Below, piece after piece: positions 46,841-58,028 of a stretch of DNA of 64,000 bases. The position numbers were made by a program, and so were the translations under genes. The stretch is from an uncultured Candidatus Saccharibacteria bacterium. GTDB lineage: Bacteria; Patescibacteriota; Minisyncoccia; Phycocordibacterales; WO2-35-19. How positions within the stretch are numbered: position 1 is the stretch's first letter; every line of letters starts with the position of its first letter. The notes beneath the pieces were generated by a model. The model ran no database searches. It worked only from the letters and a program-made list of their open reading frames with translations, and had not been told where the DNA came from. Location of the stretch: the NCBI GenBank assembly GCA_964519145.1, contig CAZFHL010000001.1, forward strand, positions 682 through 64,681. The letters run 5' to 3'.

Positions 46841-46969
46841 AAAATATTAGGCTTTATGTTTGAAGATTTTTGAAAGAACCTTATTTAAATTTAATTAATT
46901 ACTAATACATTAATTTTAACTGCCATATTTCAAAGGTGAACGGGTGTTTTCGGAATCACGGACAAAAAC

Positions 46970-46999
46970 TTGACTTTTTAGACTATCGTATGTTATAAT
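46970..46999 (+). promoter_or_regulatory. sigma70 promoter with extended -10 (TTGACT-18 nt-TGtTATAAT) driving the DGR target gene
   Basis: TTGACT at 46970-46975. TGtTATAAT at 46991-46999. Lies 95-145 bp upstream of the candidate starts. Confidence 0.5.
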
Positions 47000-47143
47000 A
47001 TATAGTAGAAATTGGAAATAGTTTTTCAGGTGGTCATAGTTAAAAGTTACTTACAAATCAAAGAGTGATTCAAAGAAATTAAGTATTTTTTAGTTATGAC
47101 CACTACCAGAGGTGGAGGTCAAACAGAAAGGAGGCTGACGATG

Positions 47144-47770
47144 AATGACATCCTCAGCCAAGCTCTCGAGGGGTTCATCGGACCCCTTAGACAGCTCATG
47201 ATTAACCTGCTCGGCCCAAACGGGCCAGAGTGGGGAGAGGAACTGAAGAAGTTTCTCCGAAAGGAGCCGACATGGTCGGCTCCGAAAATCCTCCAATTTG
47301 TGTCAGAGGTGGTGGTCCCCGCCACCTCGCAGTTCGTTCGGAGGGAGAAGTTCGTCGTCGCCACCTCGGCCTCGGCCGAGGTGAAGATCAGCTGGATTGG
47401 AGGAAATTTCTCCAGCTGGTTCCTTGCCGGTGACGGCAAGGTCGAGGAGGTAGGTGGGGAGACCACCCTCCTCGCCCATCGGTTGACCGAGAGGTCAACC
47501 GATGGGCCGATCATCGCCGAGCTGGGTGGCGAGAAGGTGGCGGAGACCACCCTCGTCGAGATGTTCGCCCTGCTGAAAAAGCAGGGTCGGGGTCAGGAGG
47601 GTACCCTCCTGACCAACAGGTACGCGAATGTCTTCTACATTCGCGACCGTGCGAATGTTCTTCGCACAGTTGACTGCTACTGGCACGGCGTTGGCTGGGG
47701 TGTGGGTGCCTACGAGGTTTCCCGTCCGTACCCGTGGGGTGTGGGCTATCAGATCTTTTCCCGTAGGTAA
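47144..47770 (+). CDS. DGR target (variable) protein, GC-rich, C-terminal VR; fold unassigned
   Basis: SD gaaaggaggctgacgATG at 47144. The track ORF starts at 47096 without an SD. The C-terminal 35 aa are encoded by the VR. About 60% GC against about 30% for the genome. No signal peptide. Not a recognisable CLec RGGSW pattern. Confidence 0.6.
   Translation, partial: NDILSQALEGFIGPLRQLMINLLGPNGPEWGEELKKFLRKEPTWSAPKILQFVSEVVVPATSQFVRREKFVVATSASAEVKISWIGGNFSSWFLAGDGKVEEVGGETTLLAHRLTERSTDGPIIAELGGEKVAETTLVEMFALLKKQGRGQEGTLLTNRYANVFYIRDRANVLRTVDCYWHGVGWGVGAYEVSRPYPWGVGYQIFSRR
47661..47766 (+). repeat. DGR variable repeat (VR)
   Basis: 106 bp with 90 of 106 identical to the TR. 15 of 16 mismatches fall at TR adenines (VR positions 47672, 47678, 47684, 47691, 47699, 47700, 47705, 47706, 47711, 47729, 47738, 47739, 47747, 47764, 47766). 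One falls at a non-A position (47724 G vs T). Confidence 0.8.
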
Positions 47771-47852
47771 TTTGAGTCTTAGGTTCTGACCCTTTGACTC
47801 TTTGACCCCTTGATACTTTGCATTCGTGCACGGTCTCAGGGGGTCTTTTTTT
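47771..47852 (+). promoter_or_regulatory. GC-rich hairpin/terminator 3' of VR (putative DGR target-recognition element)
   Basis: gaccccttgatactttgcattcgtgcacggtctcagggggtc + T7. 6-bp GC stem with inner palindrome cgtgcacg. Preceded by a direct ctttgac x3 motif. Confidence 0.45.
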
Positions 47853-48115
47853 ATACTCCAAAAACACATATAATTATTTTGAAATTATGTGTTACAGAAA
47901 AGTTAAAATTTTAGTTTTTCTGTCATGGTTTTAAAATATTTATAATGAGAGTTGTGTTGGATAAATCTTATACAAGAGTGTTATAAATATTTTTCAAAAA
48001 AATTAAAAGTTGGTATATGAAACTAATGGACTTTTATGTCTAGGGTAAGATTCAATCTCTTATGATTTAAGGGGTGGTGGAATGGGTGGTTTTATATACG
48101 AAAAGGTTTGTTTTA

Positions 48116-48221
48116 TTCGCACAGTTAACTGCAACTGGAACGGCGATGGCTGGAATGTGAATGCCAACGAGGTTTCCCTTCCGAACCCGTGGAATGTGGG
48201 CAATCAGATCTTTTCCCGAAA
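48116..48221 (+). repeat. DGR template repeat (TR)
   Basis: Adenine-rich counterpart of the VR. AAC/AAT codons in TR correspond to D, Y, H, G and R codons in VR. Flanked by AT-rich sequence contiguous with avd and RT. Confidence 0.8.
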
Positions 48222-48224
48222 CTA

Positions 48225-48554
48225 TTATTTTTCTCCTGTATTTACAGGAGTTTTTTGTTTTAGATTTTCTTGAAGACCTTTTCTCCATCCACCTAACATT
48301 TTACCTATTTCATCTAAATCAAGGGAAACTTTTATATATTTTTCATTTGGTACAAGTTTGCTTTCCCATGCAAGTTGCATAAAGAATTTTAGATTATCTA
48401 GTTTTGATATTGTTTTAGATAAAAATAATATTTTTTGTTCAGATACTAGATAAACAGAAGCAAAAGTTAATTCTAAAACATCTAAGAAAGATTGTTCTAT
48501 TCTGTTTCCAATACCAAATCTTTCTATCTTTGGAAAATCTCTATGAATAATCAT
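48225..48554 (-). CDS. avd: Avd-like accessory variability determinant (four-helix-bundle, PF05635-like)
   Basis: 109-aa basic protein. C-terminal DEIGKMLGGWRKG matches the Bordetella phage bAvd motif EVGRILGSWIARVNRKG. Preceding L..L..F..LA helix also matches. Oriented opposite to TR and RT. Confidence 0.55.
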   Translation of the reverse strand: MIIHRDFPKIERFGIGNRIEQSFLDVLELTFASVYLVSEQKILFLSKTISKLDNLKFFMQLAWESKLVPNEKYIKVSLDLDEIGKMLGGWRKGLQENLKQKTPVNTGEK

Positions 48555-48659
48555 CCAGTTTTTGTAAACTTCTTTTTCTTTTGATAAAACTTTTGGTAAA
48601 GAGTTTGTCGGGGGGGGGTAAACTATTTGTCATATTTTATGTTCTAATTTTAAGTTATA

Positions 48660-57852: not shown

Positions 57853-58028
57853 AAGCCAGTCGTGTGCGGGGCAAGAGGAGGTTTGTCCCGCACCTCATAT
57901 TAGAATCAGATGTCTATGGTTTTGATAAGAGGTTATAAGTTAGCAGAGATTTTTGAAATAATTCTGAGTTCTAAAATGAACTTTAATGAAATGCTTCAAA
58001 AGTCTTTCTATAATAAAATCTTAATACT

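Follow-up and report, generated by a model that had tools for sequence, protein, structure and literature searches.

A GC-rich variable-protein gene in an otherwise AT-rich DGR cassette of an uncultured Saccharibacteria bacterium

INTRODUCTION

No prokaryotic machinery other than DGRs is known to hypermutate proteins in a targeted manner, and DGRs are particularly frequent in Patescibacteria. Their mechanism was reportedly defined in the Bordetella phage BPP-1. Surveys have covered DGRs that include those of Patescibacteria/CPR (Wu et al. 2018, PMC5758913; Roux et al. 2021, PMC8144416), and in the former the GC deviation of a whole DGR was used only as a marker of horizontal transfer. In the DGR literature that we searched, we found no description of a split in GC content between the target gene and the reverse transcriptase (RT). 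With regard to target recognition, Guo et al. (2011, PMC3240598) described a hairpin/cruciform with GC-rich stems of 7 to 10 bp and 4-nt loops of GRNA consensus, in which structure and not sequence matters; this element lies 4 to 34 bp downstream of VR, and upstream sequences are dispensable in BPP-1.

Here, we analyze a DGR in a 64,000-nucleotide stretch of DNA (the window) from an uncultured Candidatus Saccharibacteria bacterium (GCA_964519145.1, contig CAZFHL010000001.1). Like the DGRs of Patescibacteria/CPR, it combines an RT, Avd, and an adenine-specific TR/VR pair in which VR occupies the 3' end of the target gene; the small target may be C-type-lectin-like, as in known DGRs, and a GC-rich hairpin follows VR. 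Unlike in known DGRs, GC is high throughout the target coding sequence (CDS) but host-like in avd and RT. In addition, the leader covaries, a hairpin encloses the start codon, the poly-G is conserved, and, in this copy, a train of hairpins lies inside the CDS. The GAGA loop of a 15-bp hairpin in that train fits the GRNA consensus of the recognition element. However, the ten hairpins of the train lie upstream of VR, within the CDS, and have loops of mixed size and sequence, while the hairpin downstream of VR has a UUCG loop, is terminator-like, and is found at 35 to 85 nt rather than 4 to 34 bp.

In the amelioration model of Lawrence and Ochman, horizontally acquired islets are said to be detected by their atypical composition. 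The target resembles such an islet in its sharp discontinuity, in a GC3 far from that of the host, and in the substitution flux of its relatives toward host composition. It differs in being a single gene in an otherwise host-like cassette, with no close donor found, in a trait that spans hosts of differing GC as well as another protein family, and in having non-coding neighbors that are equilibrated. GC-rich genes for structured RNAs (rRNA, tRNA, and other ncRNA) also occur in AT-rich genomes. As in those genes, GC enrichment coincides with strong predicted folding, of which the window has a non-coding example at 57.5-58.0 kb, but the target is protein coding with conserved homologues, and its stems are not conserved in relatives.

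RESULTS

The gene in the GC-rich island is the hypervariable gene of a canonical DGR (Table 1). VR and TR form a 106-nt repeat that is 86% identical, with 14 of the 15 mismatches at TR adenines and 14 of the 25 TR adenines altered in VR, and their homology stops directly after VR. Together with the adjoining Avd and RT, this bears out the original prediction that the island gene is a DGR target, and the retroelement is presumably active. The match of avd to its Pfam family scores above the curated cut-off, and the RT has at least 8,000 relatives, mostly in Patescibacteria, the nearest at 65-69% identity. A mechanically called RT reading frame begins at TTG 48660, as opposed to ATG 48675. The target protein, with VR at the C terminus, may have a C-type-lectin-like fold, and the long GC stem with UUCG loop and T run located 35-85 nt downstream of VR is conserved. 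The order of the cassette (leader, target, TR, avd on the minus strand, poly-G, and RT) is common to the clade, and boxes resembling TTGACA and TATAAT are found at the matching relative place in homologous loci.

Table 1. Features of the DGR cassette, in window coordinates
Feature	Position	Strand	Details
Promoter-like site, target gene	46970-46999	+	Putative; -35 TTGACT 46970-46975, 18-nt spacer, -10 TATAAT 46994-46999
Structured 5' leader	47030-47103	+	P1 arms 47030-47053 / 47080-47103 around P2 hairpin
Start-codon hairpin	47133-47159	+	GGCTGAcGATG-aatga-CATCcTCAGCC; overlaps end of SD AAGGAGG 47128-47134
DGR variable protein CDS	47141-47770	+	209 aa from likely true start; GC3 ~0.73-0.75
Hairpin train	47169-47667		Ten perfect GC-rich hairpins/palindromes inside CDS
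VR	47658-47763	+	3' end of target gene; direct repeat D1
3' UTR	47771-47853	+	Repeated CTTTGAC motifs; terminator-like UUCG hairpin 47804-47845; T run 47846-47852; GC 0.446
TR	48113-48218	+	25 adenines; GC 0.51; flanks AT-rich
avd (accessory variability determinant)	48225-48554	-	GC 0.26, GC3 0.10; Pfam PF22296 bAvd, E = 1e-11
G9 homopolymer	48610-48618	+	Between avd and RT; sole G/C run >=8 in window
DGR reverse transcriptase	48675-49655	+	ATG 48675; Pfam PF00078, E = 3e-18; GC 0.26, GC3 0.18

The island, at 47096-47870, has a GC content of 56.6% (0.566) compared to 31.3% (0.313) in the rest of the window, as had been proposed. This corresponds to z of ~7 when scored against every other 775-bp segment of the stretch, where the maximum GC is 0.415, and no other coding island of such GC exists within the 64 kb. 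GC is 0.588 in the open reading frame at 47096-47770 and 0.592 in the CDS at 47141-47770. By codon position, the target has values of 0.58/0.46/0.72, while GC3 of neighboring genes ranges from 0.10 to 0.23, so that in codon usage as well as composition it deviates from the host. One other GC-richer islet lies at 57.5-58.0 kb, where GC is up to 0.54; this islet is non-coding and strongly folded (z = -9.1). In line with what had been described for avd, RT, and the TR flanks, the remainder of the cassette is AT-rich (avd, 0.26; RT, 0.26; target-TR spacer, 0.255; leader, 0.27).

Both edges of the island are as abrupt as had been described. GC rises from ~0.25 to >0.5 across 47080-47105 and falls from ~0.45 to ~0.2 across 47845-47860, directly past the terminator hairpin. 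The 5' edge does not coincide with the start of the gene, however. The true start is most likely ATG 47141 and not 47096, because homologues start there, with an SD upstream; ATG 47096 is inside the 3' arm of the leader P1 helix. The island therefore begins ~45 nt within the 5' UTR and not at the start codon. It spans the body of the variable-protein transcript, from ~45 nt of 5' UTR through the CDS to the terminator.

Several simple origins of the island were rejected. The reverse-strand open frames are an artifact of composition, as was originally suspected: the longest stop-free run is 150 codons, compared to 150 +/- 19 in synonymous shuffles, which leaves no grounds for a real antisense gene. 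Thermophily does not account for the GC-rich structure, with tRNAs at merely 51-54% GC, nor does an R-loop-prone, G-rich sense strand, given a mean GC skew of zero. The hairpins did not create the island either, since GC outside of stems is still 0.546 and GC3 is 0.74. Finally, adenine mutagenesis was rightly dismissed at the outset. A3 and T3 of the target are both ~0.13, A exceeds T outside VR in 34 of 36 targets, and A depletion is limited to VR. The GC profile along the target is a plateau with no gradient toward VR.

Candidates for RNA-level control appear to be conserved in the family, judging from covariation in the leader and the start-codon hairpin. The P1/P2 elements of the leader correspond to inverted repeat I1, and of the 19 pairs in a consensus over 12 loci, 11 show compensatory changes; GC of the leader is 0.27 here versus 0.47-0.55 in the L006 group. 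Across 41 loci, the start-codon hairpin is paired in 93.9% of cells, compared to 19-43% with the partner slid, and its 17 compensatory cells were matched by 0 of 500 shuffles. The terminator-like hairpin of the 3' UTR folds and has conserved counterparts in 15 homologous loci, and a poly-G of G8 to G11 occurs at the same place between avd and RT in 9 of 11 related cassettes. At the gathering threshold, Rfam returned just two tRNAs in the window, with weak, chance-level matches in 46900-48700 and no match for the leader.

The composition of the target recurs among relatives. In 44 distinct CPR-type (Patescibacteria) loci with host GC of 0.315-0.555, the median GC of the target outside VR was 0.55 (IQR 0.53-0.57). 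L003, L004, and L005 are one cassette from three data sources. Target GC was independent of that of the host (slope 0.19, p = 0.17), in contrast to the GC of the RT, which tracked it (slope 0.87, r = 0.89, p = 3e-4, n = 11). Sense-strand GC skew averaged zero and was positive in 17 of 36 targets. Orphan copies, with no RT within 10 kb, were equally GC-rich. Five further cassettes with a remote or unrelated target protein, three of which (L101, L102, and L103) were chosen by relatedness of their RT, carry the same island: target versus comparison GC was 0.58 vs 0.375 in L101, 0.45 vs 0.345 in L102, 0.54 vs 0.33 in L103, and 0.53 vs 0.35 and 0.385 in L098 and L099. The L101 target is unrelated (hhalign probability 0.7%), and several target families occur within a single RT clade. 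Among DGR cassettes of this Patescibacterial clade, GC richness of the variable-protein gene is a heritable hallmark. The window genome is the most AT-rich host sampled, and CPR hosts with 0.52-0.56 GC also carry the family. Several members (L021, L057, L061, L063, L065, and L019) have a host-like composition. A GC-rich body is not required for homing, because L021 and L057, which have AT-rich targets, retain canonical, adenine-only differences between VR and TR.

A search for GC-rich homologues had been recommended. Homologues in GC-rich hosts share 35-40% identity and lack the N-terminal module, and no close donor emerged; among 5.8 billion proteins, the closest target homologue has 57% identity, and no match to a phage reservoir for the target was found. 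To the question of whether homologues carry DGRs, the answer is yes for related cassettes in Patescibacteria. The homologues in GC-rich Verrucomicrobiota, where the gene matches a host GC of 0.57-0.68, and on conjugative plasmids of Bradyrhizobium are non-DGR.

The target co-diverges with RT and avd (Mantel r 0.65-0.89, p = 2e-4). For the RT, pairwise distances correlated with those of the target at r = 0.89 (n = 11) and 0.65 (n = 15), which contradicts the earlier claim that the target is phylogenetically foreign to its own retroelement. The RT of the window is star-like and about equidistant from all relatives, and target/RT congruence is poorly resolved for this branch. Synonymous divergence of the target (0.33-0.44) was lower than that of the neighboring RT (0.8-2.6) and also fell below that of flanking host genes. 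In the best-sampled subclade, polarized third-position substitutions amounted to 73 S>W versus 12 W>S, a net loss of GC. On terminal branches, the ratio was 30:2 for RT-linked copies and 67:15 for orphans; both lose GC, so the linkage of a copy to an RT does not explain the loss. Compared to simulated S>W:W>S ratios of 1.3:1 at equilibrium and ~10:1 under neutral decay, the observed flux indicates that the best-sampled copies are decaying close to neutrally and are not being held. The inferred ancestral GC3 of the target is ~0.85. Modules and whole cassettes are also exchanged between hosts, which complicates every argument from rates: nucleotide identity of whole cassettes is 83-85% between unrelated hosts whose GC is 0.36, 0.39, and 0.49, related hosts share higher nucleotide identity in the target than in the flanks, and in one pair avd is 95% identical while RT is just 77%. 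Ameliorated members arose independently, are scattered over the tree, and have DGR signatures that still work.

In this copy, the CDS is packed with hairpins. Stems in the train measure 6-15 bp and loops 3-9 nt; at 47474-47507, a GAGA loop caps a 15-bp stem, and 47591-47614 is a perfect palindrome of 24 nt. The train ends at the 5' edge of VR. Eight stems of at least 7 bp were observed, whereas 2,000 synonymous-codon shuffles gave 0.68 on average and never more than 4. The minimum free energy of the CDS had a z of -10.1 against synonymous shuffles and of -12.5/-14.4 (two strands) against dinucleotide shuffles. As Watson-Crick palindromes, the stems fold to the same extent on either strand, and all ten are perfect despite strong AT pressure. 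Among the homologues examined, perfect hairpins (8-10) inside the CDS are unique to this copy; the aligned positions of homologues are merely 34-63% paired, and the hairpins are common to none of them. Host genes of the window showed no excess of palindromes (32 hairpins observed vs 31.3 expected), which argues against a genome-wide process that generates them. Folding z scores against synonymous shuffles were ~-2.5 for targets (n ~32) and ~-0.2 for RT (n = 15), in comparison to -10.1 for this copy; flank controls were few and slightly negative (~-1.3, n = 4). Alifold of 31 sequences detected no conserved covarying structure inside the CDS across the family, with almost no two-sided changes. 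In contrast, the leader and start-codon hairpin do covary.

DISCUSSION

Our study documents an island of GC that is confined to one gene of a DGR cassette. We tentatively favor an explanation, to which we assign a probability of about 0.45, in which a nucleic-acid constraint holds the target CDS at ~55-60% GC and the island is a clade-wide property as opposed to a one-off import. Such a constraint would most likely be selection for a stably folded, translationally throttled transcript, with folded single-stranded DNA as a possible additional constraint, while leader, spacer, avd, and RT would be free to equilibrate with host composition. The cassette contains an internal control in that the homologous leader (0.27) and target-TR spacer (0.255) are at host composition, whereas the CDS is at 0.59. 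The constraint would be extreme in this genome, where the CDS upstream of VR is written as ten perfect GC hairpins and yet encodes a recognizable member of the family. The lower synonymous divergence of targets and their excess folding point to constraint, and we infer that it is constraint rather than recent import that keeps GC high. Against constraint are the net loss of GC in the best-sampled subclade, the members with host-like composition, and the lack of conserved covarying structure in the CDS.

Net GC-to-AT substitution, transfer of cassettes, and GC-rich non-DGR homologues point instead to the slow decay of a GC-rich ancestry. Under this alternative, which we regard as somewhat unlikely, the target is a compositional relic from a GC-rich lineage that ameliorates passively without selection for GC, and persists through repeated re-seeding by horizontal transfer among Patescibacteria, some of them relatively GC-rich, and may also persist through slower decay of GC-rich DNA. 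GC-rich Verrucomicrobiota and conjugative plasmids of Bradyrhizobium harbor non-DGR homologues, which makes a GC-rich ancestry in the distant past plausible; to that extent the original prediction of a GC-rich origin survives, though weakened. The S>W excess was strong on all branches tested, with an ancestral GC3 of ~0.85, and passive decay is also consistent with the 83-85% identical cassettes of unrelated hosts, target identity above that of flanks, mosaic divergence of avd and RT, working DGR signatures in scattered, independently ameliorated members, and CPR hosts that are themselves relatively GC-rich. Yet no donor-like near relative was found for any copy, and in these cassettes RT and avd have reached full equilibrium (GC3 of 0.18 and 0.10 here), while the leader and spacer of this one are at host composition. 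With a target dS of ~1.5 between the window and L006, a rough calculation suggests that neutral decay leaving a GC3 of 0.75-0.8 in both lineages would need an ancestral GC3 of >1. Furthermore, within the same RT clade the island also occurs in a target family of unrelated proteins, target GC stays in a narrow band regardless of host, and passive decay leaves excess folding and perfect hairpins unaccounted for.

A more recent event, as proposed in the original prediction, would have brought the target and its derivative TR into this genome from a GC-rich donor or phage and then coupled them to a resident AT-rich RT and avd. The extreme contrast in GC3 within the cassette (0.72 vs 0.10-0.19) would fit such an event, the several target families of one RT clade imply past replacement of targets, and with a star-like RT, congruence at this single locus is poorly resolved. 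We nevertheless consider recent acquisition improbable. The compositional split and architecture are seen across the family, the best non-self match has 57% identity with none in a GC-rich genome or a phage, and non-coding flanks of foreign composition, which co-transfer would have brought along, were not found, the leader and spacer being AT-rich already. The cassette as a whole is of the family type because leader, start-codon hairpin, 3' UTR motifs, avd, and poly-G are all present. It is even harder to credit a DGR-driven mutational bias that raised GC gene-wide, for example through upstream spill of adenine mutagenesis, GC-biased repair of homing intermediates, or R-loop-linked processes. 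The association of the island with DGR targets of several protein families, and a hairpin train that halts at the edge of VR, would fit a bias of this kind, but third positions are depleted of A and T alike, A exceeds T outside VR, composition forms a plateau with edges that follow the transcript and not the distance to VR, and sense-strand skew averages zero. Moreover, orphans are as GC-rich as other copies, while RT-linked copies are losing GC. The possibility that we find hardest of all to accept is an assembly chimera in which a GC-rich fragment of another organism was joined into an AT-rich contig, which had been raised originally. While the exact contig is present in one assembly only, VR inside the island matches TR outside of it with adenine-specific differences, the edges of the island coincide with elements of one cassette (leader helix arm and terminator), and dozens of independent assemblies likewise place a GC-rich target next to an AT-rich avd and RT. 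Both a chimera and a one-off import are very unlikely.

A bolder version of the constraint explanation, which we think rather doubtful, is that in this clade the target gene is actively held GC-rich and fold-prone whatever the host or protein family, and that the palindrome-chain CDS is a functional nucleic-acid device. If so, correction from arm to arm could provide self-templating protection of the scaffold-coding part from AT-biased decay. Alternatively, the chain could be an insulator or landing structure that would confine retrohoming to VR and throttle translation.

If the target is compositionally decoupled from RT and Avd across hosts, then atypical GC is no simple marker of recent transfer for these elements. 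Decoupling would also imply some constraint on target DNA or RNA beyond VR, where current models hold that upstream sequence is dispensable. The hairpin-packed CDS, covarying leader, start-codon hairpin, and poly-G provide testable handles on the regulation and insulation of the cassette. In AT-rich metagenome bins, GC islands could in addition be an inexpensive way to flag DGR targets.

A GC-rich target gene in a canonical DGR

Our results reveal a sharp compositional island at the target, the gene for the variable protein of a DGR. The stretch from 47096 to 47870 has a GC content of 56.6% (58.8% in the open reading frame) compared with 31.3% for the remaining window; every other 775-bp stretch in the window is at or below 41.5%, which puts the island at z ~7. 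The borders are sharp, falling at ~47085-47100 on the 5' side and at ~47850 on the 3' side, just beyond a terminator-like hairpin. At codon positions 1, 2, and 3 the target has GC contents of 0.58, 0.46, and 0.72, as expected of a true coding frame; third-position GC (GC3) in adjacent genes is 0.10-0.23. As the original prediction held, the antisense open frames are not a real signal: the longest reverse-strand run free of stops is 150 codons, the same as in shuffled sequences (150 ± 19), and its length is a chance product of target codon usage.

The island is part of a canonical DGR. Its identification as the target, also made in the original prediction, is borne out by variable and template repeats (VR and TR) that differ almost exclusively at TR adenines and by the accessory determinant (avd) and reverse transcriptase (RT) genes alongside. 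The ATG at 47096 chosen in that prediction falls within the 3' arm of the leader helix. The TR sits in a 63-codon open frame (48082-48273) that resembles the target C-terminus (…RTVNCNWNGDGWNVNANEVSLPNPWNVGNQIFSRN) and is probably a leftover of the duplication that produced the TR. In L002 and L003, two related loci from other genomes, such frames are annotated as small genes (52-59 aa) immediately upstream of avd.

Features of the DGR locus and its RNA elements
Feature	Position (nt)	Strand	Remarks
Promoter-like TTGACT/TATAAT pair	46970-46999		Upstream of target gene
Structured 5' leader	47030-47103
Hairpin around start codon	47133-47159
Likely start codon (ATG)	47141		Preceded by AAGGAGG; homologs begin there
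VR	47658-47763		15 differences from TR, 14/15 at TR adenines
3' UTR	47771-47853
TR	48113-48218		Paired repeat of VR
avd	48225-48554	minus	PF22296 match
G homopolymer	48610-48618		Between avd and RT
RT	48675-49655		PF00078 match

A second GC-richer islet, at 57480-57990 (57.5-58.0 kb), reaches 0.54 in 200-nt windows and is non-coding. It has no ORF longer than 81 aa and folds strongly (predicted z = -9.1), so that it probably represents a structured RNA missing from the annotation. Rfam gave nothing credible for it (two microRNA hits at chance level, E 0.06-0.07), nor was a tmRNA called there. GC of up to 0.50 in 200-nt windows was also seen at 5631-5982 and at 51567-51870, where the typA terminator and ORFs on the minus strand (51648-52007) overlap the stretch.

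Recurrence and mobility of the cassette

The target has 67 detectable relatives, the top non-self match being 57% identical, and DNA was obtained for ~60 homologous loci. Among 44 distinct Patescibacteria-type loci spanning host GC of 0.315-0.555, target GC outside the VR had a median of 0.55 (IQR 0.53-0.57) and was essentially independent of host GC (slope 0.19, p = 0.17). In the same cassettes, RT GC follows the host (slope 0.87, r = 0.89, p = 3e-4, n = 11). This recurrence makes a one-off import very unlikely, and with it the earlier proposal of acquisition from a GC-rich donor or phage. Nor is the target foreign to its own retroelement, as had been claimed. Specifically, its pairwise divergence outside the VR is correlated with that of RT and avd (Mantel r = 0.89 with 11 taxa and 0.65 with 15, p = 2e-4), so that the three have largely moved together; mosaicism was seen in one pair (RT 77% versus avd 95% identical). 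Leader-to-RT cassettes that are 83-85% nucleotide-identical occur in unrelated hosts (GC 0.36, 0.39, and 0.49), which indicates that the cassette is mobile. A chimeric assembly, raised as the alternative to import, is very unlikely given that one and the same cassette is found in three independent assemblies (L003, L004, and L005); the exact contig of the window is present in one assembly only. The prediction was right to dismiss adenine mutagenesis, which is excluded because third positions are depleted of A and T to the same degree and, outside the VR, 34 of 36 targets have more A than T.

High GC is also found away from the RT: of 31 genome loci, 19 lack an RT within 10 kb and are still GC-rich. 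In L007 (10001-11250) the target and a TR copy remain while avd and RT are not detectable, and in L008 (9906-10816) the target alone is left, with ~85 nt upstream and ~110 nt downstream; both appear to be decay states of the cassette.

The RT clade, with at least 8000 relatives, is associated with more than one target family. Three cassettes, those of the nearest RT relatives that lie on long contigs, had the same architecture and different target proteins, that of L101 being unrelated (profile comparison probability 0.7%). Their targets are also GC islands (0.58 versus 0.375, 0.54 versus 0.33, and 0.45 versus 0.345), and their RTs have a GC content of 0.29-0.34. Two remote members with only the N-terminal helical module in common are likewise GC islands.

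Hairpins within and around the target gene

Ten perfect GC-rich hairpins with stems of 6-15 bp, including a 24-nt perfect palindrome and a 15-bp stem with a GAGA loop, are arrayed from 47169 to 47667 in the coding sequence 5' of the VR. Eight stems span 7 bp or more, whereas 2000 shuffles preserving protein and codon usage averaged 0.68 such stems and never exceeded 4. Against shuffles of this kind, the minimum free energy (MFE) of the target has a z of -10.1, and the folding of either strand lies equally far outside that of dinucleotide shuffles (z = -12.5 and -14.4). All 87 pairs in the stems are intact in the face of strong AT pressure, which would require that the stems arose very recently or are under active maintenance. 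The excess is absent from host genes within the window, and none of the homologs has more than two such hairpins, with positions aligned to the window hairpins being unpaired. The hairpins were rejected as the source of the island, as GC is still 0.546 outside the stems. Within the target coding sequence, long-range complementarity links 47311-47327 with 47535-47551 (17 nt, 94%) and 47450-47477 with 47590-47617 (28 nt, 71%), segments that close a multi-hairpin domain in the MFE fold, and direct repeats of GGAGACCACCCTC(C/G)TCG occur at 47458 and 47542.

The recognition hairpin known from DGRs is located 3' of the VR, and BPP-1 does not need the sequence 5' of its VR (PMC3240598). In contrast, the hairpins described here are upstream and thus have no described counterpart. 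Wu et al. 2018 took GC deviation of the whole DGR as a sign of transfer; in a limited literature, which is no proof of novelty, we found no mention of a compositional split between target and RT or of hairpin-rich targets.

The 5' leader is built from a long P1 helix and a P2 hairpin, together with an internal loop rich in purines (GAAAAG/AGAAAG), and compensatory changes are seen in 11 of 19 predicted pairs. Matched by no Rfam family and with counterparts in L002, L005-L008, L052, L054, L055, L061, L071, and L094, it is a candidate for a new cis-regulatory RNA. The start-codon hairpin (consensus CTGAcCATGG-ata-CCATGcTCAG) is paired in 93.9% of cells across 41 loci including the window (alignment A3), with 17 compensatory cells and C-G to T-A covariation at two pairs; it explains the nucleotide-level conservation of 'GGAnnCTGACCATG' and the N-terminal MxTMLS codons. 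In the 3' UTR, two or three CTTTGAC/CTTGGAC repeats precede a terminator-like element, in which a long GC stem capped by a UUCG tetraloop leads into a T run. This design is common to 15 homologous loci and located past the point where TR/VR homology stops, and it may serve for recognition on the target side. Finally, the G homopolymer is the sole G/C run of at least 8 in the window. Runs of G8-G11 are present in 9 of 11 related cassettes (at the matching position in L002, L003, L006, L014, L017, L018, L020, and L027), often directly after a small hairpin, and could act as a slippage-prone switch or be a piece of the DGR RNA.

Relic or constraint

We lean toward constraint, with moderate confidence, as the cause of high target GC. 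A strong rival is that the composition is a relic, that is, a GC-rich ancestry slowly decaying toward the host. Such ancestry is suggested by non-DGR homologs of the target core domain (35-40% identity) in GC-rich Verrucomicrobiota (L031-L048) and on Bradyrhizobium conjugative plasmids (among them L100; NZ_CP094524.1, 131602-132276). Furthermore, polarized third-position changes in the best-sampled subclade number 73 GC-to-AT versus 12 AT-to-GC, where simulations give 1.3:1 at equilibrium and ~10:1 under neutral decay, and GC is being lost in RT-linked (30:2) and orphan (67:15) copies alike. Some members, dispersed over the tree, are already host-like in composition. Two of these, L021 and L057, retain adenine-only VR/TR differences, which implies homing without the need for a GC-rich body. 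The Verrucomicrobiota homologs have an invariant C-terminus, and the plasmid copies lie directly after an NYN-domain gene. In Opitutaceae the homolog follows an RND efflux pump gene, and in L102 an NYN gene is found ~0.5 kb 5' of the DGR target.

Constraint is supported by a synonymous divergence of 0.33-0.44 in the target versus 0.8-2.6 in the adjacent RT, and by flanking host genes that also exceed the target, often to saturation. Also in its favor are folding beyond that of synonymous-codon shuffles (mean z of ~-2.5 in ~32 targets versus ~-0.2 in 15 RTs), a narrow band of target GC whatever the host, and the same island in an unrelated target family. In the window, the family-type leader helix is at host level (GC 0.27, where relatives have 0.47-0.55), as is the target-TR spacer (0.255), while the coding sequence is at 0.59. 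In addition, we infer from a rough calculation with no fitted model that a dS of ~1.5 between the window copy and L006, with GC3 of 0.75-0.8 in both lineages, is incompatible with neutral decay. The interest of the locus lies in a compositional decoupling that recurs and in a coding sequence packed with hairpins.
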